From Escherichia coli (GTDB taxonomy: Bacteria; Pseudomonadota; Gammaproteobacteria; Enterobacterales; Enterobacteriaceae), in assembly GCF_051903065.1 (NCBI RefSeq), contig NZ_CP178438.1: a stretch of 64,000 bases of DNA; one strand, 5' to 3'. The notes beneath the pieces are model-generated. The model ran no database searches and was not told the origin of the DNA. It saw only the letters and a program-made list of their open reading frames with translations. The translations under genes were made by a program, and so were the position numbers. Positions 3,861-62,495 of the stretch are shown here, in pieces (the stretch's first letter is position 1; each line of letters opens with the position of its first letter).

Positions 3861-3936
3861 TCCTCTGTAGTTCAGTCGGTAGAACGGCGGACTGTTAATC
3901 CGTATGTCACTGGTTCGAGTCCAGTCAGAGGAGCCA
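3861..3936 (+). tRNA. asnV: tRNA-Asn (anticodon GTT)
   Basis: Identical 76-nt tRNA-Asn sequence to the copy at 1452-1527. Confidence 0.93.
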
Positions 3937-7498: not shown

Positions 7499-7858
7499 TT
7501 ACGAAAGAAGATGGCATTGTGGAATAGCCAGACTTCCTCGTGTTAACGTCCGACAAAATGCGTCATTGACAGCGGTTTCTCTGGAATGACAGATTTCATT
7601 CAGATAATGGATTAATGCTACAGCCCCACCAGCCGGACCAGTCAGTAAACGGGCATTGTGTTCTGCAATCAAAATTACCGTCGTTCCCTCAGAATGAGCG
7701 AGCCATTCTGGTACGGATATCTCGCTTTCAGCTGCTATCAATAGCTGCACTGAATAATCGCTATACGCATCTGATAATGATTGCACAGACCCACCGTTAA
7801 GAGGCTGGAAATCTTGCTGCCAGTCCTCACGGATAAAACCGCAGCCTCTACAGTGCAT
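7499..7858 (-). pseudogene. Unassigned 119-aa ORF in a degenerate region; possibly a remnant of the ancestral cbi/pdu locus, or spurious
   Basis: ORF with ATG start directly upstream of cobU on the same strand; no recognisable motif; in Salmonella this position holds cbiP. Confidence 0.25.
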
Positions 7859-8133
7859 TGTTGGTCAGTGCCTGCGAAGCAGACATTATCGCGCTGGTGC
7901 TTAATGCGGACGCACCGTGGTCACCTTTTTCGCCTGGCTTTATCTCGTCAATGAATCGTCCGATCATTGGAGTAGTCACCAAAGCAGATTTAGCCAGCAT
8001 GGAAGAAATATCTTTGGTGAAAGTTTGGTTACGGGAAGCTGGATCGCACAACGTGTTAGTAACCAGTGCGGTTAATAACAATAGAGTTGCAGAACTTTTT
8101 GCCTTGCTTCATACAGAAGATGTCTGTCGCTAA
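7837..8133 (+). pseudogene. EutP/PduV-family GTPase fragment (C-terminal part only, no P-loop)
   Basis: Translation ...[55 protein letters not shown]... resembles the EutP/PduV C-terminal half; the frame is closed by a TAA at 7834-7836, so the N-terminal Walker A region is missing. Confidence 0.5.
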
Positions 8134-26083: not shown

Positions 26084-27064
26084 TTATTTCGCGTTGTAGT
26101 TGCGTAGAGCATTACGCCCCAGCACAATCCCCGCGCCAACCATGCCGCCCAGCAGCATCGCCAGAATCAAGGTGATTGCCTTTTTCGGACTATCGCGACG
26201 AATAGGTAACGTCGGTTTCATCACATAACGGTAAGCATGAATATCAAGATCATCAACTTTTAAGCTTTCGATATCCAGCAGGTTTTGACGAGTCTGATAG
26301 TAGTTTGGCGAGAACACCAACGGACGGGTCGCCTCATGCTTAATCATCGACTCCAGCGCTTCGCTCCCCAAAAGGAACAACGTATCTTGCGTGATATCTT
26401 CGCCAGTCTGTTGAATTTGCGGTTTTGTCACCTGCGCCTGATTCGCATACTGCAACGCTTCCTGAATCTGACGGATACGCAGATCTTTCTGCTCTTGCGC
26501 GACTACTTCCTGAGTTCTTAAAGAGTCCTGCAAGTTTTTCATACGCAGCGCGATGTTGTCTTTCAGGTCTTTTTCCAGCTCTACGTTTACCTGGTCGTCA
26601 ACTTGCTGGATATACTTCGCCAGCTGCTTCTGAGCACCTTCAGGTGTTTCACCAACATAAGACACCGCTAAAGGTAATGACTGATTTTTAACGGTAGGCT
26701 CAATGGTCAGCTTTTCTGCTTCTTCCTGGTTATCCAGCGTTTCCGCTAATGCTGAGAATGCAGTGCTGTAACGTCCGATAAGCGAAGCCTGAATGTCGGA
26801 GACTTTCGGTACAGCCGGACCGTAAATCACATTCATCGCGTTGGTATAACCAGCGATTTGCCCCACATCAGGTTGAGTAACGATAGCTGTGGAAGTCCAC
26901 TTTTCTTTGGCAACGGCCAGATACCCTATAGCCAGGGCAATAGCCACAATGACAGAGATGATAATTGTCATCTTGCCGCGCCACAACTGCACCAGTAAAT
27001 CAATCAAATCAATCTGTTCCGGGTCATGGTTTTGCCCAGAAACATTATTATTTTCTACTCTCAT
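26084..27064 (-). CDS. wzzB: O-antigen chain-length determinant (Wzz, polysaccharide co-polymerase)
   Basis: MRVENNNVSGQNHDPEQIDLIDLLVQLWRGK... with N- and C-terminal TM segments; the track ORF is extended 19 codons. Confidence 0.9.
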   Translation of the reverse strand: MRVENNNVSGQNHDPEQIDLIDLLVQLWRGKMTIIISVIVAIALAIGYLAVAKEKWTSTAIVTQPDVGQIAGYTNAMNVIYGPAVPKVSDIQASLIGRYSTAFSALAETLDNQEEAEKLTIEPTVKNQSLPLAVSYVGETPEGAQKQLAKYIQQVDDQVNVELEKDLKDNIALRMKNLQDSLRTQEVVAQEQKDLRIRQIQEALQYANQAQVTKPQIQQTGEDITQDTLFLLGSEALESMIKHEATRPLVFSPNYYQTRQNLLDIESLKVDDLDIHAYRYVMKPTLPIRRDSPKKAITLILAMLLGGMVGAGIVLGRNALRNYNAK

Positions 27065-27210
27065 CATTACCCTAACGGACGAAATAATTTTAAGTCGCCA
27101 TAGTTTAGCGATAATCGCCATGAATGCTATAGGATAAATGATAAAAATAATGAATTATTACAAAGGGAACATAAGAGAATCAGGGCGAAAATCGCCCTGA
27201 TAACAGGATG

Positions 27211-28377
27211 TTAGTCACTGCCAAAGAGATCGCGGGTGTAGACTTTGTCTGCCACATCCTTAAGCTCTTCTGCCATACGGTTGGAAATAATGACGTCGGC
27301 TTGTTGTTTGAAGGTGGCGAGATCTCGTTCCAGGCGAGAGTTGAAGAATGAGTCTTCTTTCATCACCGGCTCGTATATGATCACTTCAACGCCTTTCGCC
27401 TTGATACGTTTCATAATCCCCTGAATGGAAGACGCACGGAAGTTATCTGACCCGCTCTTCATAATCAGACGATAAATACCCACCACTTGCGGCTTGCGTG
27501 ACAAAATGGCATCGGCAATAAAATCTTTACGTGTGCGGTTAGCATCGACAATTGCCGAAATCAGGTTATTCGGCACAGACTGGTAGTTCGCCAGTAACTG
27601 CTTGGTATCTTTCGGCAGACAATAACCACCATAACCAAACGACGGATTGTTGTAATGGTTGCCAATACGCGGATCGAGACAAACGCCTTCGATAATCTGG
27701 CGAGTATTCAGACCTAAACTTTCTGCATAGCTATCCAGTTCATTAAAGTATGCTACGCGCATCGCCAGATAGGTATTAGCGAAAAGTTTAATCGCTTCTG
27801 CTTCAGTGGAGTCGGTAAACAGTGTAGGGATATTTTGCTTAATCGCGCCTTCCTGTAACAACGCAGCAAAACGTTCTGCGCGTTCTGAACGCTCACCAAT
27901 GACAATACGTGAAGGATGGAGATTATCGTAAAGGGCTTTACCTTCACGGAGAAATTCCGGAGAGAAAATAAGGTTATCGATACCCAGACGTTCTTTAATT
28001 GATTTGGTGAAACCTACCGGAATTGTAGATTTAATCACCATTACCGCGTTGGGATTAATTTCTGTCACATCACGGATGACCGCTTCCACGCTTGAGGTAT
28101 TAAAATAATTTGTTTTCGGATCATAATCGGTAGGCGTGGCAATAATAACGTAATCGGCATTTTTATACGCGTCATACTTATCTGTCGTAGCGCGGAAATT
28201 GAGATCTTTAGTCGCCAGATACTCTTCAATCTCCTTATCAACAATCGGTGACTGCTTCTTGTTAAGCATGTCCACTTTGGCCTGAACGATATCCAGTGCA
28301 ACCACTTCGTGGTTTTGCGCAATCAGAATACCATTTGAAAGACCAACATAACCTGTTCCTGAAATTGTTATTTTCAT
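27211..28377 (-). CDS. ugd: UDP-glucose 6-dehydrogenase
   Basis: [29 protein letters not shown]... Confidence 0.92.
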
Positions 28378-28625
28378 TAGCTCTGACTTCTTCCGGTTAA
28401 ACATTTAGAGTGGTCATTAATCCACCACCACAGCTTCATCTACTGCGGGATTTTTAACGCTGATGTAGATGAACTGTCAAGGCAGCGATCCTGCTGTGCG
28501 ACTCTGTATTATATCGCTTTTTTAACCATTAATTATAAAAAAAGGCCATAACCTGCCGCTTTGTATAATAAAAAAGCCCGAAGGGTTTCTCCGGGCCTTG
28601 CATTGATTAATTGATTTAAATCAGA

Positions 28626-30032
28626 TTAATCCAGCCATTCGGTATGGAACACACCTTCTTTATCAATGCGCTTATAAGTATGTGCACCGAAATAGTCACG
28701 CTGTGCCTGGATCAGGTTCGCAGGCAGAACTGCGGCGCGGTAGCTGTCATAATAGGCAACCGCAGCGGCGAAGGTCGGAACCGGGATACCGTTCTGTACC
28801 GCATAAGCGACGACATCGCGCAGCGCCTGCTGGTAGTCATCGGCAATTTGCTTGAAGTACGGAGCCAGCAGCAGGTTAGCGATCTGCGGATTTTCGGCGT
28901 ATGCATCGGTGATTTTCTGCAGGAACTGCGCACGGATGATGCAACCAGCACGGAAAATCTTCGCGATTTCGCCGTAGTTCAGATCCCAGTTGTACTCTTC
29001 AGACGCAGCACGCAGCTGAGAGAAGCCCTGAGCGTAAGAAACGATTTTGCCCAGATACAGCGCACGACGAACTTTTTCGATGAACTCAGCCTTGTCGCCT
29101 GCTGGCTGTGCTTGCGGGCCAGAGAGAACTTTAGATGCGGCAACACGCTGATCTTTCAGAGAAGAGATATAACGTGCAAACACAGACTCGGTAATCAGCG
29201 ACAGCGGTTCGCCGAGATCCAGTGCGCTCTGGCTGGTCCATTTACCGGTACCTTTGTTAGCCGCTTCATCCAGGATCACATCAACCAGGTAGTTACCGTC
29301 TTCATCTTTTTTGGTGAAGATATCTTTGGTGATGTCGATCAGGTAGCTGCTCAGTTCACCGTTATTCCACTCGGTAAAGGTCTGCGCCAGTTCTTCGTTG
29401 GTGAGGTTCAGGCCACCTTTAAGCAGAGAATAGGCTTCAGCAATCAGCTGCATATCGCCGTATTCAATACCGTTGTGAACCATCTTCACATAGTGACCTG
29501 CACCATCGGCACCAATATAGGTAACGCATGGCTCACCGTCTTCAGCTACTGCGGCGATTTTGGTCAGGATCGGTGCAACCAGTTCATAGGCTTCTTTCTG
29601 CCCACCAGGCATAATGGAAGGACCTTTCAGCGCACCTTCTTCACCGCCGGAAACACCGGTACCAATGAAGTTAAAGCCTTCTGCAGAAAGCTCACGGTTA
29701 CGACGAATGGTGTCCTGGAAGAAGGTGTTACCGCCATCAATGATGATGTCACCTTTATCGAGATATGGTTTGAGGGAATCAATAGCAGCATCCGTGCCTG
29801 CACCTGCTTTCACCATTAACAGGATGCGACGAGGCGTTTCCAGAGATTCAACAAACTCTTTCACCGTATAGTAAGGAACCAGTTTCTTGCCTGGATTTTC
29901 GGCAATCACTTCTTCCGTTTTCTCACGGGAACGGTTGAAAATAGAGACGGTATAACCACGGCTTTCGATGTTGAGCGCAAGGTTGCGCCCCATCACTGCC
30001 ATACCGACGACGCCGATCTGTTGCTTTGACAT
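28626..30032 (-). CDS. gnd: 6-phosphogluconate dehydrogenase (decarboxylating)
   Basis: 468-aa [27 protein letters not shown]... Confidence 0.96.
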
Positions 30033-30169
30033 TGTTTACTCCTGTCAGGGGGTTACCGCGGGATTTGACGGTTAAAAAGGATAACAGATATAAAATAAGA
30101 CATGCAATAAATGAATGATAGACTCAATTATTATCAATGTTTTAAAATTAAACAAATAGAGTTAAACTC

Positions 30170-30916
30170 TTAAGCGTGTTTTCTTAATGCACGCTGGATA
30201 TAATGCAGAAAATAATACATTGCCTTTACATATCCAAAACCAAGATAATAACGGTAAAACTCCCATTGCGATTTTATTATTTTTATCTTATTCGATGATA
30301 AACTTAAATGACCTTCGCGATAAAATGCTAGGTTTTTATTTAGGCAGTGGGCATAATCTATTTTTTGCAGGATTATTAGCCATAATGCCATATCTTGACG
30401 CTTTCGTATGAGTGGCATATATACTTTACCCACAACTTCCGTGTCATAAATTGCAGTAAGGCATCCGATAACATTGGATTTCAGTAAAGAAGAAAAATCG
30501 ACTTTTGATGGGGGCAGAATATCTTTTTTAATATTACCATATGCATCAATTTTACTATATGCAGTATAAGTAAGGGCGTAGCCATTCATAATCATATAAT
30601 TAATCTGCTCTTTTAGTTTATCGGGTGCCCATAGATCATCACTATCTAAAAAAGCCAAAAATCGTCCACTAGACTCTTTTATTGAGTTGTTTCTTGCTGC
30701 GCCTGCGCCTTTATTTTTATCTGAAACAAAAAGTTTTATCCTGTCATCTTGCTCAACAAATTCTTTAACTATCTGACAAGTTCTATCTGTTGAGCAGTCA
30801 TCAGTAATTAACAACTCCCAATTAGAATATGTTTGTTCTATTACCGATTTTATACTTTCCTTAATTGTGAATTCAGAATTATAACTGGGCATAATAATTG
30901 ACACAAGATAATCCAT
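30170..30916 (-). CDS. O-antigen glycosyltransferase, GT2 family
   Basis: 248 aa, IIMPSYNSEFTIKESIKSVIEQTYSNWELLITDDCSTD (GT-A fold, DxD); AT-rich. Confidence 0.75.
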   Translation of the reverse strand: MDYLVSIIMPSYNSEFTIKESIKSVIEQTYSNWELLITDDCSTDRTCQIVKEFVEQDDRIKLFVSDKNKGAGAARNNSIKESSGRFLAFLDSDDLWAPDKLKEQINYMIMNGYALTYTAYSKIDAYGNIKKDILPPSKVDFSSLLKSNVIGCLTAIYDTEVVGKVYMPLIRKRQDMALWLIILQKIDYAHCLNKNLAFYREGHLSLSSNKIKIIKSQWEFYRYYLGFGYVKAMYYFLHYIQRALRKHA

Positions 30917-30918
30917 TA

Positions 30919-31950
30919 TTATTTCCTCCCTTTATTTTGATCGTAGCCTTTCGGGTTTTTTATTTGCCAATTCCAAGAATCTCGTAGCATATCCTCTAAA
31001 TTTAATTTGGCTGACCAACCGAGTTCATTGAAGGCTAACATTGGATCAGACCAACATTCTGCTATATCTCCATCTCGCCTTGATATAACACACTTATTTA
31101 TTTTTCTAGCTATAATTCTCTCGAAAGTATCAACCAACTCTAATACTGAATATCCTTTACCTGTACCTAAATTATATATCCTGATAGAATTTTCTTTAAA
31201 CTCTGCATTCAAAGCAGCAATATGTCCATCGGCAAGATCCATAACATGAATAAAATCCCGAACTCCATATCCGTCCCTGGTAGGATAATCATTCCCAAAT
31301 ATTTTCAATGAATCTAATTCGCCTATAGCAACCTTAGTGAGATATGGTACAAGATTATTAGGAATCCCATTCGGAGCCTCACCTATCATTCCACTGGGAT
31401 GTGCTCCTACCGGATTAAAGTATCGTAATGAAATAATATCAAAACCATAATTTGCTTTCGCAAAATCACAAAGGATTTGTTCTGCCATTAATTTCGAAGT
31501 GCCATAAGGATTTGTTGTACCACCTACTTTACATTTTTCATTTAATGGAATTTGTTCAGGCTCACCATAAACCGTTGCAGAAGAACTAAAAATAATTTTC
31601 TTGGCTTTGCTATTTATCATAGCACTAAGGACACTAATTGTTCCCTGAACATTATTATTATAATATTCAAGAGGCCTACTGATTGACTCAGAAACAGATT
31701 TCAACCCAGCAAAATGAATGACCGCATCAATATCTTTATTAATAATTACTTCGTGTAATAATTCTGTGTTAAGTATATCCATTTCGATAAAGCAAATGCT
31801 TTTTTGCGTGATATTCTCTACACGCTTAATTACCTCAGATGAAGAATTAACCAAATTATCCACAACAGTAATTTCATTTTCATTTTCTAATAAGCGAAGT
31901 ACCGTATGCGAACCAATATAACCAGCCCCACCTGTTACTAGGATATTCAT
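30919..31950 (-). CDS. UDP-hexose 4-epimerase (GalE/Gne-like SDR)
   Basis: 343 aa, MNILVTGGAGYIGSHTVLRLL... with GxxGxxG and Y..K (YGTSK) motifs; AT-rich. Confidence 0.8.
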   Translation of the reverse strand: MNILVTGGAGYIGSHTVLRLLENENEITVVDNLVNSSSEVIKRVENITQKSICFIEMDILNTELLHEVIINKDIDAVIHFAGLKSVSESISRPLEYYNNNVQGTISVLSAMINSKAKKIIFSSSATVYGEPEQIPLNEKCKVGGTTNPYGTSKLMAEQILCDFAKANYGFDIISLRYFNPVGAHPSGMIGEAPNGIPNNLVPYLTKVAIGELDSLKIFGNDYPTRDGYGVRDFIHVMDLADGHIAALNAEFKENSIRIYNLGTGKGYSVLELVDTFERIIARKINKCVISRRDGDIAECWSDPMLAFNELGWSAKLNLEDMLRDSWNWQIKNPKGYDQNKGRK

Positions 31951-31951
31951 A

Positions 31952-32638
31952 TTACTCCTTACGATATCGCATGATAATTTTTCTTTTAATTCTCTCTAAA
32001 AAAGAAAGCTTCCAACTTTTAGCCCAATGATGGATAGCATAACAATCTTTTGTTATATATCTATAAAGTAATTGTGATCGTTTGGCACTACCATAAGGGT
32101 TATATGGATAAAAATATTTATCAGAGTATATTGTGATATCTTTAATAGTAGAAATATCTTGTGAATCTATTTTTTTTACACCATGTAAGTCCAAAATATT
32201 TTTTAAAAGAAAAGGAATTGTTTGCATACCATTTGCTTTTATGACAGCTGCTTTTAGCTCTTGGAAAAGCCAAAATTTGGGTTCACAACCCAAAATACCA
32301 CAACTAGGCGTATCAATATCTTCTTCGCCGATAAATGCAATATTTTTTCGCAATGCAGAAATATCCCGTACTAATTCCATATCAGTATCGAGATATATAC
32401 CACCAAAACGATATAATACATCACATCGGATCAAATCTGCAGCAAATGCAAACTTTTTCCTTTGGATCATTTCTTCAACAAAATCATTCTGACCAAATTC
32501 CTTTCTATAAGAATCCTCATTCCATAAATAGCAATCGTAATTTACAGCATGTTCTTTCCACGACTCCATACAATCTAAATATATTTTAGGGATTTCACTT
32601 TTACCAAGCCAAATATAATGAATTATTGCTGGTATCAT
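31952..32638 (-). CDS. O-antigen glycosyltransferase (GT32-like, DXD motif)
   Basis: 228 aa, MIPAIIHYIWLGKSEIP... then ...GGIYLDTDME... Confidence 0.65.
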   Translation of the reverse strand: MIPAIIHYIWLGKSEIPKIYLDCMESWKEHAVNYDCYLWNEDSYRKEFGQNDFVEEMIQRKKFAFAADLIRCDVLYRFGGIYLDTDMELVRDISALRKNIAFIGEEDIDTPSCGILGCEPKFWLFQELKAAVIKANGMQTIPFLLKNILDLHGVKKIDSQDISTIKDITIYSDKYFYPYNPYGSAKRSQLLYRYITKDCYAIHHWAKSWKLSFLERIKRKIIMRYRKE

Positions 32639-33501
32639 AACGATTTTCCTTTAACTTTATTCTTGATTTTTACAAGAAAAAGACATGTAATAAATAAAAC
32701 GAAAACAGTAAATTTTGTCTTTTTCTTTACAACTATTAGATTACTAATATTAAAAATGGGAATAAAATGAAAAACGGTTTGTTTAATGACATTAATACCA
32801 AGACCTTTTAGATTCAAGTTATTGATAACAAAAGCCATCGTGCCATTGATGTTTTTCCGCAAAAGATCAGTATAATTAGAAGTTAAACCTCCTGGTAAAT
32901 ATTCACTATAATAGATGATCTCATTGAAATATTTAAAGTAGCCATTTTCTAAAATTGAATTCCAAACCAATGCCTCAGTTATAAAATTTTCACCATCAAA
33001 AACAGGAAATTGATTTTTAAGTAAAGAATCACGTTTTATGATTAATGCTTTATCTCCCTTTGTACCTGCAAACTTTTCCAGAGAAATATTTTCAATTGTT
33101 TCCGCTTTACCTACAATCTCTTTTGTAGTTTTATACCCCCTCAGGAAAACCATCCCTTTACATTTATCATCAACAATTGCCTGGATTTTTTCATTGGCTA
33201 GAGCAATAGCGTTGGGCGTTAATATATCATCACTATCAACAATAAATATCCAGTTAAACGACGAAATTTCTATCCCTATATTTAAGGCTGTGTGTTTTCC
33301 ACCGTTCTTCTTATATCTATATATGATTTTAAATGGGGATGTCGACGCTATTTTGTCAATAACCTCTTTTAAATTATCAGTAGAACCATCATCAATTATC
33401 ACCCATTCAAAATCATAAGATTGTTGTGACATTAAGGATTCATATAATTCATAGACTAACAAAGCTCGATTGAATACAGGAGTAATTACTGAAATTGACA
33501 T
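32635..33501 (-). CDS. O-antigen glycosyltransferase, GT2 family
   Basis: 288 aa, MSISVITPVFNRALLVYELYESLMSQQSYDFEWVIIDDGSTDN. Confidence 0.75.
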   Translation of the reverse strand: MSISVITPVFNRALLVYELYESLMSQQSYDFEWVIIDDGSTDNLKEVIDKIASTSPFKIIYRYKKNGGKHTALNIGIEISSFNWIFIVDSDDILTPNAIALANEKIQAIVDDKCKGMVFLRGYKTTKEIVGKAETIENISLEKFAGTKGDKALIIKRDSLLKNQFPVFDGENFITEALVWNSILENGYFKYFNEIIYYSEYLPGGLTSNYTDLLRKNINGTMAFVINNLNLKGLGINVIKQTVFHFIPIFNISNLIVVKKKTKFTVFVLFITCLFLVKIKNKVKGKSL

Positions 33502-34793
33502 CTAACCCTTCCAAAATCATTAATCAAACGCCATGGGAAAATAATATACTTCAAACTCTGTAATTGCATTTTAAACATATTTTTAGTTTTTGGTATAAAT
33601 ATAAAAATCAAAAAGTTAGCAATAAAATAAGAAAGCAATGATACAGAAGCAGCGCCAACCGCTCCATATTTTGGTATAACAATGATATTCAAAGTTATAT
33701 TCAAAATTGCAGCAATAATGGTTTTTATCACTTCTAAATTAATATAATTCTTACTAAATAACCATTTAGATGAAAATGATCCTAAAAAAACAAAAACACC
33801 ACTCCACATATGAACCATTAATACTTGCGCCGATAAATCCATATTATCGCCATATAGTATTTTTATAATTATAGGTGACAGAGCAATCATAATAATTGCA
33901 CCATATATAGAGATTACACTTACAACTCCGCATATCCATTTCAAAAAGATAAATGATTCTTCCTCTCCTATTTTTTCAAGCTGAACAATTTTTGGAAAAA
34001 AAGCGTTCGCTATCAAACCTCCACACATAAACCAGATGGCTGATAACCTAAGAGCTGCACTAAATGCCCCAGCCTCTTTTGTACCTGTAAGAGACTCTAA
34101 TAAGATAACATCACACTGTGTAAATAGTGATACACTAATAGTTGATACAATGAGTTTACTCCCCATAAAAAAATACATTTTGACTAATTCTAAATCAATC
34201 GTCCATTTTGCTGAATAAGGGAAATAGAATTTGTATATAGTAAAACTAAAAAGAGCTTGAATTAAATAAAAGAAAACATAAGCATAAAAGACATACCAAC
34301 CAAAATATATACAACACCAAAGATAACCATATGAAACGGCCACACTACTTAGAATTGTGATAGCACGATATTTTGATTCAACCAATGCCGAATAATGAAA
34401 AAATATTACTTTAGCATACAAGCTAAAAAAATTAGCAACGATTAATATCGCCACGAATATAAAAGCGAACGGTATATCATAGTAAAAATAAATAACAATG
34501 GTAATAAAAGCAGATGCATATAATAACAGTCCTAAAAACTGTAAGAATAATGCACATCCAATCTCAGTGCCCGTTGATGATGGATTTTCAACAATTCTTT
34601 TAACTACGACTATATCAATGCCAAATAAAAATAACGATAGTAATATTTGTGAGATATTCATTATCGTTGCCCAACTACCCAAGATATCTAACCCATAGAT
34701 TCTTTTGATAGAAGCAAAAAGTGACAGCTGAAATACCAGCATGAACACTCGGTCACTCAACAACCAAAATAGGTTACTTAAGTATTTTTTCAC
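33486..34793 (-). CDS. wzx: O-antigen flippase (Wzx, MOP superfamily)
   Basis: 435-aa polytopic membrane protein, strongly AT-rich, apparent GTG start. Confidence 0.72.
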   Translation of the reverse strand: MKKYLSNLFWLLSDRVFMLVFQLSLFASIKRIYGLDILGSWATIMNISQILLSLFLFGIDIVVVKRIVENPSSTGTEIGCALFLQFLGLLLYASAFITIVIYFYYDIPFAFIFVAILIVANFFSLYAKVIFFHYSALVESKYRAITILSSVAVSYGYLWCCIYFGWYVFYAYVFFYLIQALFSFTIYKFYFPYSAKWTIDLELVKMYFFMGSKLIVSTISVSLFTQCDVILLESLTGTKEAGAFSAALRLSAIWFMCGGLIANAFFPKIVQLEKIGEEESFIFLKWICGVVSVISIYGAIIMIALSPIIIKILYGDNMDLSAQVLMVHMWSGVFVFLGSFSSKWLFSKNYINLEVIKTIIAAILNITLNIIVIPKYGAVGAASVSLLSYFIANFLIFIFIPKTKNMFKMQLQSLKYIIFPWRLINDFGRVRCQFQ

Positions 34794-34796
34794 GTG

Positions 34797-36023
34797 CTAG
34801 TTACCTTCATTGATATAGTTAACACCTTTATCAATTGCCTCCAATATATAATCAATCATACCATACACACCCTCAGTAAATGGATGATTATTTAGGAAAG
34901 TAAACATGTTATTCCCTAAAGACACATTATACATTAAATACAAAAAAGGCACTAAATTTACTACATATAAACAAATAAGTAGGGCATATTTACTCCTACC
35001 TTTTCTCTCAAAAGCTTTTAGATAAGGTAAAATAAAGTAGGGATAAAAACCAAAAATAATCATACCCAATCTATTCGAAAGTGCTGGGAAAGGTAATAAT
35101 ATTAAGAATAGAAAACACTCCTTACAAAATAAAATCTTATTAAAATCATCACATTTACTTCTCTTCCCTATCATTATAATAAAGCATATATTTACGACTG
35201 TAATGATAATATAATTTAACGGCAAACGTGTGAATTTATCGTTCCCAGAAACTGAAGTGAATTTCGATAATAGCACAGAATAAATTGGCGTATTATAAAC
35301 CACAAAAAACACAACTAAAAGTCCAATAAGAATAGAAAAAACAATTTTTGCATATGAGTATTTTTTTGAACCAAAGATCATATAAACTGCATATATAAAA
35401 ACATTAACAACTGCAGACATGTGAAAAAAAACACTCAATAAAAAAAAGATATATTTTTTAAATGAACGCTCATTTATAGCATACAGAAAAACAACCACAG
35501 ATAAAACCTGTCGAAGAAAATATGATGTAACTTCTATAAATCCTAAGTTAAAAAAGAAAAGCGATAATAAAAAAAGTTTATATTTTTTTTCAACATCTTT
35601 AAGAATCTTGGATAAAAAAAAGACGATCAGAAAATAAGTAGAAAGTAAAAATACTTCATCATTGCCATCTGAAATATACCCAATAAATTTCATGATGGCT
35701 AAAAACATAAATTCCAGCCCATCACCAAATCTTGAATAGCCAAAAACATCAATTAAATTATAATTTAACTCATGGTAAACATGAAGATACTCTGCAATAT
35801 CTCCAAATGGTTTTAGTGTGGAAAAAAAAATAATAATAAACACCAATAGTGCATAAAAATAAAAATTACGCAATACTGGGTGTAACAATGGCGAGAGGGC
35901 ACCAATAAATATCAATACAACAAGAGGGTAAAAGAATGTTGCCAATAATAACAAAGGAATAAAATATACAACACAGTTATTATTTGACAATGAATTTTCA
36001 TTGCTGTTTTTATAAATATTCAT
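34797..36023 (-). CDS. wzy: O-antigen polymerase (Wzy)
   Basis: 408-aa very hydrophobic Phe/Ile/Leu-rich protein with about 10-12 predicted TM segments, typical of Wzy; lowest-GC gene in the window. Confidence 0.68.
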   Translation of the reverse strand: MNIYKNSNENSLSNNNCVVYFIPLLLLATFFYPLVVLIFIGALSPLLHPVLRNFYFYALLVFIIIFFSTLKPFGDIAEYLHVYHELNYNLIDVFGYSRFGDGLEFMFLAIMKFIGYISDGNDEVFLLSTYFLIVFFLSKILKDVEKKYKLFLLSLFFFNLGFIEVTSYFLRQVLSVVVFLYAINERSFKKYIFFLLSVFFHMSAVVNVFIYAVYMIFGSKKYSYAKIVFSILIGLLVVFFVVYNTPIYSVLLSKFTSVSGNDKFTRLPLNYIIITVVNICFIIMIGKRSKCDDFNKILFCKECFLFLILLPFPALSNRLGMIIFGFYPYFILPYLKAFERKGRSKYALLICLYVVNLVPFLYLMYNVSLGNNMFTFLNNHPFTEGVYGMIDYILEAIDKGVNYINEGN

Positions 36024-36825
36024 ATCGGGAATATCCTTTTAGCAGAATAAATAATGCAGCTATTTTTTTAATTCTGCCGCATTTTTTTTTAAAAAGAAAT
36101 TTTTTCACCCAGAATATGAAGATATATAGTAACCCTAAATATCTACCACCACAGCGTACAAAAATAGCACTTCTATCAGATAGGGCATCTGTTTCATTAT
36201 AAATTTTTTTACCAGAACTTTCTATTGGATGCACAGTAATTGTGACAGGTATAAAAATAATATTATTTTTTGTTTTCATAAGATCCGTAACAAAAATCGG
36301 TTCTTCACCCGCTTTATATCTAGCCCCCAATCCGAAACACTCATCAAACCAAACATTACATTCCTGTATTTGATTCACATTAAGGCACATTTCTATTGAA
36401 GAAATGTTAAATGCTGACAATCTATTTAGCCTTTTCCTCATTAGCGGATATTTTTTCCTTAGTCTTCCGTCTTGCGTACAACTTTGAATTTGATAATGAT
36501 ACTTGCCTCTATCTTCGATTATTCTATCTTTTAGTTCATAAAGTCCATTAACAAGGTAAGCGACATCATCATCACTTATAATCATATAATCAACGCTTTT
36601 TTGAAATGCAGTAGCCAATAAAATGTTTCTGCTTTTACTTAACCCTTTACAGTATGTCGTTATTATTATTACATTGTTTTTCTTACAAATATCCCCATAT
36701 TGTTTTTGCTTATCAGTCACTTGATGTGAAATTATTATTAAAAATTCATCTGGTATATTTTTTATTTTTTCCCAAACCTGATTTATTCCATTATTTAATG
36801 TTGATATACCTATAGCTATTTTCAT
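36010..36825 (-). CDS. Putative glycosyltransferase (GT-A like), first gene of the O-antigen operon
   Basis: 271 aa, MKIAIGISTLNNGINQV... with ...MIISDDDVAY... Confidence 0.55.
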   Translation of the reverse strand: MKIAIGISTLNNGINQVWEKIKNIPDEFLIIISHQVTDKQKQYGDICKKNNVIIITTYCKGLSKSRNILLATAFQKSVDYMIISDDDVAYLVNGLYELKDRIIEDRGKYHYQIQSCTQDGRLRKKYPLMRKRLNRLSAFNISSIEMCLNVNQIQECNVWFDECFGLGARYKAGEEPIFVTDLMKTKNNIIFIPVTITVHPIESSGKKIYNETDALSDRSAIFVRCGGRYLGLLYIFIFWVKKFLFKKKCGRIKKIAALFILLKGYSRYEYL

Positions 36826-36854
36826 CTCGGTTATCTATTTTAGACCTATGAATA

Positions 36855-36895
36855 TAAATAACGCTACCGCCCCTGGCTTTACAGCTACCAGAGCA
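36855..36895 (-). promoter_or_regulatory. JUMPstart element with ops (RfaH-dependent antitermination) upstream of the O-antigen operon
   Basis: Plus-strand AACGCTACCGCC is the reverse complement of GGCGGTAGCGTT (ops core GGCGGTAG); surrounding CCCCTGGCTTTACAGCTACCA also occurs upstream of wza. Confidence 0.7.
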
Positions 36896-37156
36896 CTGCA
36901 TGCATGTCTACGATGTGACGAGCGTTACCCACTCGCGCTTAACTCGAAAAATTCAAACGCTAATTGTCTTACCAATCCGCTCTGGAAACAAGGAAAATCC
37001 TGGAAAACTTTGACTAAAATCCTATTGCTAACTCGTTGTTATTCTGATTGTTTATATAAAACAACGGCAGGAATATTCGCAACAAATTACTTTCGCCACG
37101 AATCCTCACTGCCGTTATAATTTTCTTATCAACCGTTACATCCGGTCAGATTTTCA

Positions 37157-38050
37157 TTATTCGCTTAACAGCTTCTCAATCCCTTTACGGAACTTCGCCC
37201 CTTCTTTCAGGTTGCGCAGTCCATACTTCACAAACGCCTGCATATAGCCCATTTTTTTACCGCAGTCGTAGCTTTCACCAGTCATCAGCATTGCATCAAC
37301 GGACTGTTTTTTCGCCAGTTCAGCAATGGCATCAGTCAGCTGAATACGCCCCCATGCACCAGGTTGAGTGCGTTCAAGTTCCGGCCAAATATCGGCAGAA
37401 AGCACATAGCGACCAACGGCCATGATGTCTGAGTCCAGCGTTTGTGGCTGATCCGGTTTTTCGATGAATTCAACAATGCGGCTGACTTTGCCTTCACGGT
37501 CCAGCGGTTCTTTGGTCTGAATGACGGAGTATTCAGAGAGGTCACCCGGCATACGTTTTGCCAGCACCTGGCTACGGCCCGTTTCATTGAAGCGCGCAAT
37601 CATGGCAGCAAGGTTGTAGCGCAGCGGGTCGGCGCTGGCGTCGTCGATCACTACGTCTGGCAGTACCACGACAAATGGGTTGTCGCCAATGGCGGGTCGT
37701 GCACATAAAATGGAGTGGCCTAAACCTAAAGGTTCGCCCTGACGCACGTTCATAATGGTCACGCCAGGCGGACAGATAGACTGCACTTCCGCCAGCAGTT
37801 GACGCTTCACGCGCTGTTCAAGGAGAGATTCTAATTCATAAGAGGTGTCGAAGTGGTTTTCGACCGCGTTCTTGGACGCGTGAGTTACCAGGAGGATTTC
37901 TTTGATCCCTGCAGCCACAATCTCGTCAACAATGTACTGAATCATTGGCTTGTCGACGATCGGTAGCATCTCTTTGGGTATCGCCTTAGTGGCTGGCAAC
38001 ATATGCATCCCAAGACCCGCTACCGGTATAACTGCTTTTAAATTCGTCAT
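37157..38050 (-). CDS. galF: UTP--glucose-1-phosphate uridylyltransferase paralogue GalF
   Basis: 297 aa, [43 protein letters not shown]... Confidence 0.95.
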
Positions 38051-38292
38051 TATTTTCCTACCTCTAAGTGGCTGATAGTGCGTAAATTATTGCCATAGAT
38101 TAGCCAAACGGTATGGCTATATACCAAAGCTTAGTTCCGCATAACTTTGATTAAACCTTGCGATAACACTACACACCATCAGCATCTGGGTTACTCGGAT
38201 TACTCGGAATTCCGCATACTGATAATTTAATCAGTACCTCTTTCCGAATAATCGTAGTCCAACCTGGTCCTTTTTTCTCTGACTCTTCTGCA

Positions 38293-39288
38293 TTACTCAG
38301 AAACAAACGTTATGTCGTCTTTTTTGGCATGGACGAATTCATACTGCAGAGTTCGATCCAGACCTTGCGACAGCGTATACGGTGCCACAAAACCTGAAGA
38401 ATGCACTTTCGTTGCGTCAAACTGTGTTGTTGCGCAGAATTTTTTCACGCGCACTGAGCTGACAGCGTATTTTTTGCCCGTAATTTTGCTCAGGATATCA
38501 AAGCAATATCCACCCAGCATTCCTAGTGGGTAAGGCAAGTGCATAGAAGGGATCTTTTTGTTCAGGCTTTGTTCAACTTCAGCAACCAACTGGTTCATGT
38601 TCAAGTCTGGCTTATCAACGTAGTTATAAACCTCATAACCTGCGGCAACATTCTTCAGTTTGTACTTGATAAACTCAACAATGTTTCCAACATACGCCAT
38701 GGACTTATAGTTAGTCCCTGCCCCCACCATCATAAACTTACCGCCAGCGATCTGTTTCAGCAAGTTATAGACGTTACCGCGGTTGCGTTCACCGAAGATA
38801 ACGGTAGGACGGATGATGGTTAATGAACGTTCTGTTGGTGCTTTGTTATACCATTCACGCAGCACTTCCTCTGCCTGCCACTTACTTTTGCCGTAGTGGT
38901 TGAAAGGATCGTGTGGATGGTTTTCGTCAGGGTTGTGTTTGTTCAAACCATAAACAGCAACGGAACTGGTAAAGATGATATTTTTAACGCCTTTTTTTTC
39001 CATGGCCGCCAACACATTGCGGGTACCCTGAACGTTGACATCATAATAGAGAGAAGTAGGGCTGACGTCATCGCGGTGTTCCGCTGCAAGTAGTACAACA
39101 GTGTCAAAACCGGCTAACGCCTGGTCGAGTGCCTGTTGATCACGAACATCGCCAATCTGTGTGATTTCTGGATAAAAGTGGCTCTGCTGTTTGTCCAGGT
39201 TCTTGATATTAAAGTCAGCAATTGCCGTTTCAAGTAGTCGGGTTCCTACGAATCCGGAAGCTCCTATGAGCAAAACGTTATCGTTCAT
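38293..39288 (-). CDS. gne: NAD-dependent sugar epimerase (UDP-GlcNAc/GalNAc 4-epimerase Gne-like)
   Basis: 331 aa, MNDNVLLIGASGFVGTRLL... with Y..K (YGKSK); sits between galF and wcaM, where K-12 has no gene; resembles the Z3206-type gne location remembered from O55/O157. Confidence 0.6.
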   Translation of the reverse strand: MNDNVLLIGASGFVGTRLLETAIADFNIKNLDKQQSHFYPEITQIGDVRDQQALDQALAGFDTVVLLAAEHRDDVSPTSLYYDVNVQGTRNVLAAMEKKGVKNIIFTSSVAVYGLNKHNPDENHPHDPFNHYGKSKWQAEEVLREWYNKAPTERSLTIIRPTVIFGERNRGNVYNLLKQIAGGKFMMVGAGTNYKSMAYVGNIVEFIKYKLKNVAAGYEVYNYVDKPDLNMNQLVAEVEQSLNKKIPSMHLPYPLGMLGGYCFDILSKITGKKYAVSSVRVKKFCATTQFDATKVHSSGFVAPYTLSQGLDRTLQYEFVHAKKDDITFVSE

Positions 39289-39445
39289 AAATCACTTTAG
39301 TCTGGTTGTTACGTAAGAAACACAAGATAAAGATGAGTACCTTCCCTGAGTAGTCAATGCTGCCCAGCCCCAGCTTTAACAGTTAGTGTGAGGATTATAA
39401 TCTTTTAGAACATTATATCCAGTAAGTTTATGAATGGTCGCAAAT

Positions 39446-40840
39446 CTACTCCCTCCGTTCCGGCAATCTAAAGTTAATCTTTTCCACATTAATAATATGG
39501 TGATTAACTCTGTCGATATCGACGGAGCTTTGCCCTTTTTCATTCACCGCATGAACATTTGCAAGAGATAGCAGTGTTTCTTTTTTCGCCATAAAGACGC
39601 CGCGAACGTCTTTGCGCATGTCAAAGTTCATGCTCAATGCGGGTCCAACAGAGGATTCCTGCATCACCTTGATATTACGCATAAAAAGATGTTGCGGTTT
39701 ATTGTGTAGCTCAAGCGACGCACGCTTCATCTCAATGTTAGTCAGTGCCACAAAGGAGACGGCATTCCCGGCGGAGATTTGGATGCCGCGCAATTTATAA
39801 GCAAGATGGGTGTTATCCAGTTGAATATTATTCACTCGGAAATTTTGCGGTATCGAGAGATATTTGCCTTTAATTACCCCATAGCCGATTAACATCCCGG
39901 CGCTATTAATCATTTCAATATTATCAATCACAAAATTGTCACAACCGTAAATAGCGACCGTCGCGTTATCAATACCTGCTTTCTTACTGAAATCCGGCGT
40001 GATATTGCGGGCTTTGATATTACGAATAACAAAATGTTTACCATTTTCAACATGGATCAACTGCCGACAATCCGATCCCGTGATATTCGCCACGACAAAG
40101 TTTTTCACTGCCTGATCTTCTGGGTAATTATTATCGTAAGTGCTTCCCGCAAGGCCTATGCCGATGCCCCAGTTGATTTTGCCGTTAGTACAGTTGATGC
40201 GCTCGATGACATGGTCGGAGATCAAAATATCACTGTCGTTAATTGCCACGTTCCATTCAATGGCGTCGCCCTGTAAGTCGCTGAACTTACAATTGGTGAT
40301 GTTGGCACCGATAATCTGGTTATGAAATCCCTGGCGTAAGATGGCGTAATTAGCGTGGCTAACGGTCAGGTTATCGATGGTCAGGTTGCGCATGACCCGT
40401 TTGTTTTTGCCGCCGATATAAATCTGCGTTACCGGACCAAAGCCGCTCATCGCCAGCCCTTTGATGGTGCAGTCAGAGCCACGCACATCCAGGGTGATGT
40501 TATGCATACTGCCGCCCTCCTCCCCTGTCACCTGGCTGCCGTCCTGTAAGACAAATCGCCCTCTGCCGTTGCCGCGCAGGCTTCCAAGGATGTGTAAAAT
40601 TTTACCGGGAGGGATAAAGATGCCGGTGTTGATATTGTCACAAACCAATCCGCCAGGCACGACGACCGTATGCCCTTCGCTGAAGGCTTGTTTAAATGAG
40701 GCGATCCAGTCGTGAGGGTTGTAGTCGTTAATGTTAACGCTTTGTCGGGCGGGAAGTGCGCGAGCAAAAGGGGTATGGAGGAAGGCAAGCGCGGAGCTTG
40801 CCGTCAGGAAGGTGCGTCGGGAGAGTTTTTTAAATGGCAT
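39446..40840 (-). CDS. wcaM: Colanic acid biosynthesis protein WcaM (Tat signal)
   Basis: 464 aa, [28 protein letters not shown]... Confidence 0.9.
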
Positions 40841-62439: not shown

Positions 62440-62495
62440 TTTCAGGCATCCAGACACGCTACCGCCCCTGGCTTTTTAGCTACCAATACACTGAT
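62440..62495 (-). promoter_or_regulatory. JUMPstart/ops element in the wza 5' leader
   Basis: Plus-strand CACGCTACCGCCCCTGGCTTTTTAGCTACCA; reverse complement contains GGCGGTAGCGTG; about 180 nt upstream of wza. Confidence 0.75.

Follow-up and report, generated by a model that had tools for sequence, protein, structure and literature searches.

The galF-gnd locus of an Escherichia coli O38: an O-antigen gene cluster with a probably Gne-like epimerase, and gnu in its flank

Escherichia coli serogroup O38 and Shigella dysenteriae type 8 are known to share one O-antigen gene cluster (PMC4379981, PMC6650469, PMC8795385). According to published reports, the same cluster is present in Escherichia marmotae HT073016 (PMC6650469, PMC8795385), where it is 99.41% identical to that of O38 and 99.24% identical to that of S. 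dysenteriae type 8, and the E. marmotae carrier agglutinates with the S. dysenteriae type 8 antiserum (PMC6650469). The O38 reference strain is E. coli NCTC9038 (Iguchi et al. 2015, PMC4379981). Another described component of such loci is Gnu, the epimerase acting on UndPP-GlcNAc, whose role and gene position upstream of galF have been reported (PMC3682973, PMC7685785).

The window, that is the whole 64-kb stretch of E. coli DNA analysed here, contains an AT-rich block at 30170-36825, which is the catalogued, and thus already known, E. coli O38 (= S. dysenteriae type 8) O-antigen cluster, an ordinary locus of the kind that determines the serotype. Its genes, the neighbouring genes and the leader element are as follows.

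26084..27064, minus strand: wzzB, O-antigen chain-length regulator (PGAP annotation of the identical record)
27211..28377, minus strand: ugd, UDP-glucose 6-dehydrogenase (PGAP annotation of the identical record, its coordinates converted by +24032)
28626..30032, minus strand: gnd, downstream boundary gene (TIGR00873, 770 bits)
30170..30916, minus strand: last operon gene, GT2 glycosyltransferase of 248 aa, TuaG-like (NF047683 TuaG)
30919..31950, minus strand: GalE-family UDP-hexose 4-epimerase of 343 aa (TIGR01179, 437 bits, cut-off 262)
31952..32638, minus strand: GT32-type (retaining) glycosyltransferase of 228 aa with a DXD motif (Gly_transf_sug PF04488, E = 6e-12)
32635..33501, minus strand: GT2 glycosyltransferase of 288 aa (matches to numerous NCBIfam GT2 models, best E = 1e-15)
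33486..34793, minus strand: wzx, O38 O-unit flippase of 435 aa, GTG start (Polysacc_synt PF01943, E = 8e-8; 11 hydrophobic segments)
34797..36023, minus strand: wzy, O38 O-antigen polymerase of 408 aa (EpsG PF14897, E = 1.2e-14; 11 hydrophobic segments)
36010..36825, minus strand: first operon gene, predicted divergent GT2-like GT-A-fold glycosyltransferase of 271 aa (named WffK in S. dysenteriae)
36861..36898, minus strand: JUMPStart element with the ops motif (GGCGGTAGCGT), an exact 38-nt match in the spacer between galF and the first gene
37157..38050, minus strand: galF, upstream boundary gene (TIGR01105, 688 bits, cut-off 659)
38293..39288, minus strand: gnu, UndPP-GlcNAc 4-epimerase (PGAP product name), outside the AT-rich block

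The block had been described in the earlier note as an AT-rich island, and its composition agrees with this: GC content is 30.5% as compared with 50.9% in the remainder of the window. The windowed calculation gave 27-36% GC for each 500-bp window across 30000-37000 and about 42-59% on either side, and when the entire 64 kb were scanned in 1-kb windows, all of those with GC below 40% fell inside 30001-37500. The contrast with the flanks thus holds, but the flanks are not uniformly at 50-55% GC as had been supposed, since ugd (43.8%), gnu (45.0%) and wcaM (47.4%) are below 50%. The seven cluster ORFs are intact, tightly packed on the minus strand between gnd and galF at exactly the coordinates previously given, and their GC3 is 21-26%. 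Their products are indeed rich in residues such as Phe, Ile, Asn and Lys, the share of F+I+L+N+K+Y being 40-58% in the cluster proteins versus 30-40% in those of the flanking genes. Neighbouring cluster genes either overlap, by 4-16 bp, or lie 1-3 bp apart, in keeping with a single operon.

The assignment to O38, a serogroup not named in the earlier note, follows from nucleotide comparison and from the names of the exact proteins. By megablast, the interval 30033-37156 shows 100% identity to E. coli 23CRST027 and 99.5% to NCTC9038; a single gap-free piece spans 100% of it in 9 complete genomes, in which the same seven genes are annotated. NCTC9038 shares the gene content, the gene order and the location between galF and gnd, with per-gene nucleotide identity of 99.1-99.7% (99.69% for wzx and 99.19% for wzy, the two genes to be compared with a serogroup reference) and about 35 substitutions over the block, whereas the flanking gnd and ugd are more diverged from the window (96.4-97.2% identity). 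The exact Wzx and Wzy sequences carry the NCBI names of O38 family flippase and polymerase, and wzx and wzy are annotated as O38 family in the 23CRST027 and NCTC9038 records. Copies of the remaining cluster proteins are known from S. dysenteriae (under the name WffK) and from E. fergusonii; S. dysenteriae proteins fall into the same 90% clusters as the WffK-like and GT2 proteins of the window. The host backgrounds of S. dysenteriae type 8 and E. marmotae HT073016 differ from that of the window. The block is carried by only 12 of the 5426 complete E. coli genomes, in agreement with the earlier view that it is not the O16 cluster of K-12; beyond the 12 O38 genomes, the top matches listed span only the 310-bp galF-proximal spacer.

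The pathway type, proposed earlier as Wzx/Wzy-dependent, was upheld by the profile matches of both proteins, Wzx matching PF13440 in addition to PF01943. None of the NCBIfam HMMs matched Wzx, Wzy or the GT32 protein, the identities of these three being based on Pfam and on the NCBI names of the exact sequences. None of the seven cluster genes encodes an ABC transporter component (wzm/wzt), and wzzB lies nearby at 26084-27064, while WecA and WaaL are encoded outside the 64-kb window. Altogether, Pfam and NCBIfam profiles, a homologue profile and fold comparison agree with all seven gene identities proposed before.

As to regulation, JUMPStart with ops is a signal for RfaH-dependent antitermination. 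The window contains one exact 38-nt match to the element, with none expected in shuffled sequences; on the minus strand CAGTGCTCTGGTAGCTGTAAAGCCAGGGGCGGTAGCGT lies 35 bp 5' of the first ATG, in agreement with the placement, upstream of the first gene, of the conserved 39-bp JUMPStart, which contains GGCGGTAG. We predict that the element at 36861-36898 serves as the RfaH-dependent antitermination signal of the cluster operon. In this AT-rich DNA the scan for promoter and terminator consensus sequences was uninformative, the sites found being no more numerous than in shuffled sequence.

With respect to the supply of sugars, the absence of rml, man, fnl, per, glf and sialic-acid genes from the cluster, as claimed before, is borne out by the gene identities. 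The more general statement that the locus has no dedicated sugar-pathway genes does not stand for two reasons. First, the GalE-family gene of the cluster is itself a precursor gene, with a Cys gatekeeper as found in epimerases able to use N-acetylhexosamines. Second, another dedicated epimerase gene, gnu, is located at 38293-39288, outside the interval considered earlier. Situated 242 bp upstream of galF, it has 98.5-98.6% nucleotide identity to its counterpart in O157:H7 strains, as expected of a close orthologue of the characterised O157 enzyme, and occurs in just 1322 of the 5426 genomes. In spite of its position beyond the AT-rich block, gnu is a functional part of the O38 locus, and its presence suggests that the first sugar is GalNAc rather than GlcNAc.

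Over its full length the in-cluster epimerase shares 51% identity with E. coli GalE, and a Cys is aligned with the gatekeeper Tyr299 of the latter. Because of this Cys we consider the enzyme to be probably Gne-like and able to make UDP-GalNAc. It could instead be a plain GalE producing UDP-Gal only, in which case GalNAc would enter the O unit only as the first sugar, made by Gnu. The enzyme passes the equivalog model TIGR01179, PGAP names it GalE, and GalE and Gne are not yet separable by sequence alone (PMC3682973). Nevertheless, we regard this alternative as unlikely. The size of the pocket at the Tyr299 site decides the use of UDP-GlcNAc, and the advice given is to read a gene of clade A as probably gne when it belongs to an O-polysaccharide cluster (PMC3682973). 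Here the bulky Tyr is replaced by Cys, the best PDB match is the Y299C mutant of GalE (1lrk), and the Cys is retained in the 66%-identical orthologue from Enterobacter ludwigii. Furthermore, E. coli has a housekeeping galE, located outside the 64-kb window, with which a second enzyme specific for UDP-Gal would be redundant.

Among the four transferases, the product of the first operon gene is a divergent one. Alone, the 271-aa ORF gives only a weak match to Pfam GT2 (E = 0.005) and an NCBIfam match below the cut-off, and it is designated "hypothetical protein" in all PGAP records; if it were a non-working transferase, the O unit would comprise four sugars, provided by WecA and three transferases. 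We find this very improbable, since 18 of 26 homologues match PF00535 at E <= 0.001, and D85-D86-D87, along with other residues, is invariant in homologues down to 24% identity. The AlphaFold model (pLDDT 94.8) is confident and resembles GT-A transferases: Foldseek places TarP, WrtF and SpsA, all of them GT-A enzymes, at the top of the PDB matches (E about 1e-10), with a range of 1e-10 to 1e-8 when GalNAc-T2 is included. The gene also keeps its first position in the E. ludwigii cluster (57% identity) and overlaps wzy by 14 bp, suggesting translational coupling. The homologue profile, the invariant DDD and the modelled fold lead us to predict that this protein is a GT-A-fold glycosyltransferase.

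Among the other three transferases, the GT32 protein, "glycosyltransferase family 32 protein" in PGAP, also matches Caps_synth and TcdA_TcdB, and its DXD region is like that of TcdA. The 288-aa GT2 protein has a C-terminal hydrophobic segment (residues 261-280), and its best PDB match is to residues 94-203 of K4 chondroitin polymerase. The 248-aa GT2 protein matches NF047683 TuaG over its full length with 271.6 bits, under the cut-off of 400, and has its best PDB match to residues 375-500 of the same polymerase. This likeness of the two GT2 proteins to K4 chondroitin polymerase and TuaG hints at transfer of GalNAc and GlcA; it should be taken as a lead and not as an assignment, because the PDB matches of both are confined to the nucleotide-binding half of each protein.

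That the block is a decaying or inactive cluster in a strain that is rough, like K-12, is extremely improbable and was rejected for the window: although three transferase genes are split in the NCTC9038 record and an IS903B-family transposase is present in the matched region of the duck isolates BL12 and BHD6, all seven ORFs of the window are full length, in agreement with the intact annotation of 23CRST027, and the NCTC9038 breaks, absent from the window, are three 1-bp deletions in homopolymer runs, typical of assembly error.

Taken as a whole, we are highly confident that the block is the seven-gene operon of O38, transcribed from JUMPStart/ops, downstream of galF, in the direction of gnd and directing O-unit synthesis via the Wzx/Wzy pathway. 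The assembly probably proceeds as follows. WecA, encoded elsewhere in the genome, would form UndPP-GlcNAc, which Gnu would convert to UndPP-GalNAc. The four GT-A-fold transferases (the WffK-like protein, two GT2 and one GT32) would then add one sugar each from a UDP donor, in an order and with sugar identities that can be only provisionally deduced; the linkages are expected to be beta in the case of the three GT2-type enzymes and alpha in the case of the GT32 enzyme. The in-cluster epimerase with its Cys gatekeeper may supply UDP-GalNAc and possibly UDP-Gal, and ugd would provide UDP-GlcA, should GlcA be present in the O unit. The unit so formed would have five sugars, the four transferases and WecA being consistent with the earlier estimate of about this size, and would include GalNAc at the reducing end and probably a second GalNAc; Wzx would flip it across the membrane and Wzy polymerise it, with WzzB setting the chain length and WaaL joining the chain to the lipid A core. 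The structure of the O38 or S. dysenteriae type 8 unit was not found in the searchable text of the literature, the review by Liu et al. (2019) giving structures in a table. The final structure could also be altered by side-chain modification if prophage gtr genes or O-acetyltransferases are present elsewhere in the genome.

In practical terms, the block assigns the source strain to serogroup O38, which cross-reacts with S. dysenteriae type 8; this is of help in in silico serotyping and keeps Shigella and E. coli from being mistaken for each other. It also follows that, where O-antigen loci are found by base composition alone, the functionally linked gnu is missed, for it sits in the flank of normal GC content.

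[quoted passage not shown] This design is employed where GalNAc is the initial sugar and also an internal one (PMC3682973). These systems have transferases, Wzx and Wzy unrelated to those of O38, however, and Gne activity has been demonstrated for O86, whereas for O38 we infer it.

A closer counterpart of the whole cluster is found in the galF-gnd locus of E. ludwigii GCA_049316685.1, whose seven genes correspond in kind and order to those of the block, gnu again lying upstream of galF. We found no mention of the relationship between the two clusters in the searchable literature. With 32.3% GC, the E. ludwigii locus is AT-rich like that of O38, and the Cys gatekeeper recurs in its epimerase; rmlB- and rmlA-like genes follow gnd there. 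Protein identity to the window is only 54-67% within the cluster, as compared with 87-96% for gnu, galF and gnd; the E. ludwigii cluster is an old orthologous form and not a recent transfer. It is quite possible, though we lean slightly against it, that the O38/S. dysenteriae type 8 cluster represents one branch of an old O-antigen form that different genera have in common. Should the O units of the two clusters be identical or almost so, the clusters would constitute a natural pair for mapping the residues that determine the specificity of Wzy, Wzx and the transferases.

The AT-rich block of seven minus-strand genes between gnd and galF is the catalogued O-antigen cluster of E. coli O38 and Shigella dysenteriae type 8, i.e. 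an already known cluster and not a new one. Its nucleotide sequence (30033-37156) is 100% identical to that of E. coli strain 23CRST027 and 99.5% identical to that of NCTC9038, the O38 serogroup reference strain. The block is carried by 12 of the 5426 complete E. coli genomes, all 12 having wzx and wzy annotated as 'O38 family', and NCBI also applies this name to proteins with precisely these Wzx and Wzy sequences. O38 and S. dysenteriae type 8 have been placed in one O-antigen cluster group (Iguchi et al., PMC4379981). An E. marmotae cluster is reported to be 99.41% identical to O38 and 99.24% to S. dysenteriae type 8, and agglutination with S. dysenteriae type 8 antiserum was shown (Liu et al., PMC6650469); the same similarity between O38 and type 8 was found by Yassine et al. 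(PMC8795385), who cite known cross-agglutination. The assignment follows from the naming, the identity and these three papers taken together.

Features of the locus (window coordinates)
28626-30032: gnd, passing the NCBIfam equivalog cut-off
33486-34793, minus strand: wzx (Polysacc_synt, E = 8e-8; 11 hydrophobic segments)
34797-36023, minus strand: wzy (EpsG, E = 1.2e-14; 11 hydrophobic segments)
36010-36825, minus strand: first cluster gene in transcription order, a glycosyltransferase (GT) of 271 aa, called from homologue profile, DDD motif and GT-A fold
36861-36898, minus strand: JUMPStart element of 38 nt with ops motif, 35 bp upstream of the first ATG
37157-38050: galF, passing the NCBIfam equivalog cut-off
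38293-39288, minus strand: gnu, the UndPP-GlcNAc 4-epimerase gene, between wcaM and galF

The seven ORFs have exactly the coordinates given in the earlier note (30170-36825), and the compositional contrast described there was borne out: this interval has 30.5% GC vs 50.9% for the remainder of the window, each 500-bp window between 30000 and 37000 has 27-36% GC while both flanks have approximately 42-59%, and, when the whole 64 kb were scanned, all 1-kb windows below 40% GC fell within 30001-37500. Some genes of the flanks, for which 50-55% GC had been proposed, are below 50%: ugd (43.8%), gnu (45.0%) and wcaM (47.4%). GC at third codon positions is 21-26% in the cluster ORFs, and F, I, L, N, K and Y make up 40-58% of the cluster proteins vs 30-40% of the products of neighbouring genes. 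Between adjacent cluster genes there is either an overlap of 4-16 bp or a gap of 1-3 bp, the spacing expected of a single operon. A second ops motif (GGCGGTAGCGT), at 62456-62466 (minus strand) upstream of wza, presumably marks the colanic acid operon's JUMPStart.

Profile matches, supplemented for the 271-aa gene by homologues and a modelled fold, agree with the labels previously given to all seven genes. The proteins of 288 and 248 aa are clear members of GT2, the 228-aa protein has a GT32-type Gly_transf_sug domain, and the 343-aa protein exceeds the GalE equivalog cut-off (437 bits vs 262). The 271-aa protein is the weakest call of the cluster: alone, it matches Pfam GT2 weakly (E = 0.005), and it is hypothetical according to PGAP. 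The database search yielded 27 homologues; PF00535 is matched at E <= 0.001 by 18 of the 26 aligned ones, and the DDD motif (residues 85-87) is invariant in the alignment. The AlphaFold model (pLDDT 94.8) resembles the GT-A enzymes TarP, WrtF, SpsA, and GalNAc-T2 (E = 1e-10 to 1e-8). UniRef lists the S. dysenteriae copy as WffK.

[quoted passage not shown] The alignment places a Cys of the epimerase at the position of Tyr299 in E. coli GalE; among PDB structures the protein is closest to the GalE Y299C mutant (1lrk), and the Cys also occurs in the Enterobacter ludwigii orthologue, 66% identical. According to evidence summarised by Cunneen et al. (PMC3682973), pocket size at this site of GalE decides the use of UDP-GlcNAc; the same authors regard a clade-A gene located in an O-polysaccharide cluster as a probable gne. 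The gene at 38293-39288 is named UndPP-GlcNAc 4-epimerase by PGAP, is 98.5-98.6% identical in nucleotide sequence to the copy of O157:H7 strains, and is present in only 1322 of the 5426 complete E. coli genomes; gnu upstream of galF is used as a marker of GalNAc as the initial sugar (Liu et al. 2019, PMC7685785).

From this gene set we infer the following assembly scheme. UndPP-GlcNAc would be made by WecA and converted by Gnu to UndPP-GalNAc, which the four GT-A transferases, using UDP donors, would extend by one sugar apiece. The resulting unit of five sugars would be flipped by Wzx and polymerised by Wzy, with chain length set by WzzB. Since GT2 enzymes are inverting and GT32 enzymes retaining, three of the linkages would be expected to be beta and one alpha. 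No rml, man, fnl, per, glf or neu genes are present, which supports the earlier proposal of a unit composed of common UDP-hexoses. GlcA may be added to the proposed sugars as a weak lead, because the 248-aa GT2 aligns with TuaG over its full length (271 bits, under the cut-off) and with residues 375-500 of K4 chondroitin polymerase, the 288-aa GT2 aligns with residues 94-203 of the latter, and ugd adjoins gnd.

Between the window and NCTC9038 (27000-40000), substitutions per 500 bp number 1-4 inside the cluster, 13-22 in gnd and ugd, and 5-14 past mid-galF. This distribution fits recent sharing of the cluster between lineages by recombination, with probable junctions near gnd and within galF. 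Records of E. fergusonii proteins sharing 90%-identity clusters with the O38 Wzx and the 248-aa GT2, and of an epimerase copy under Shigella boydii, indicate that the cluster is spread over several Escherichia and Shigella lineages. In the NCTC9038 assembly, 1 bp is missing from each of three homopolymer runs, G5, A4 and T6 (opposite 30510, 32272, and 36758), which splits three glycosyltransferase genes in the annotation; these are probably assembly errors and not real pseudogenes. In duck E. coli BL12 and BHD6 an IS903B-family insertion interrupts the O38 cluster, leaving two match pieces over ~8.2 kb, and in GS04 the match is split by an unnamed insertion into two pieces over ~7.9 kb.

Direct comparison of 24 kb (20000-44000) with the 23CRST027 record gave 100% identity. 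The order there (his operon, wzzB, ugd, gnd, O38 cluster, galF, one extra gene, colanic acid cluster from wcaM to wza) is the usual chromosomal one. The annotation of the matching record also contains a truncated EutP/PduV-family microcompartment pseudogene at 7837-8133 (plus strand), beside cobUST, and two tRNA-Asn genes (1452-1527 and 3861-3936).

The co-occurrence of a gne-type gene (UDP-GlcNAc 4-epimerase) and gnu has also been described for E. coli O86 (PMC3682973). A similar locus is found in E. ludwigii GCA_049316685.1 (10001-16658 of its galF-gnd region), which carries all seven O38 cluster genes in unchanged order, with gnu, galF and gnd placed likewise, and differs in having rmlB- and rmlA-like genes after gnd. 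Its cluster has 32.3% GC and encodes proteins 54-67% identical to those of O38; it appears to be an old orthologous form and not the result of a recent transfer.
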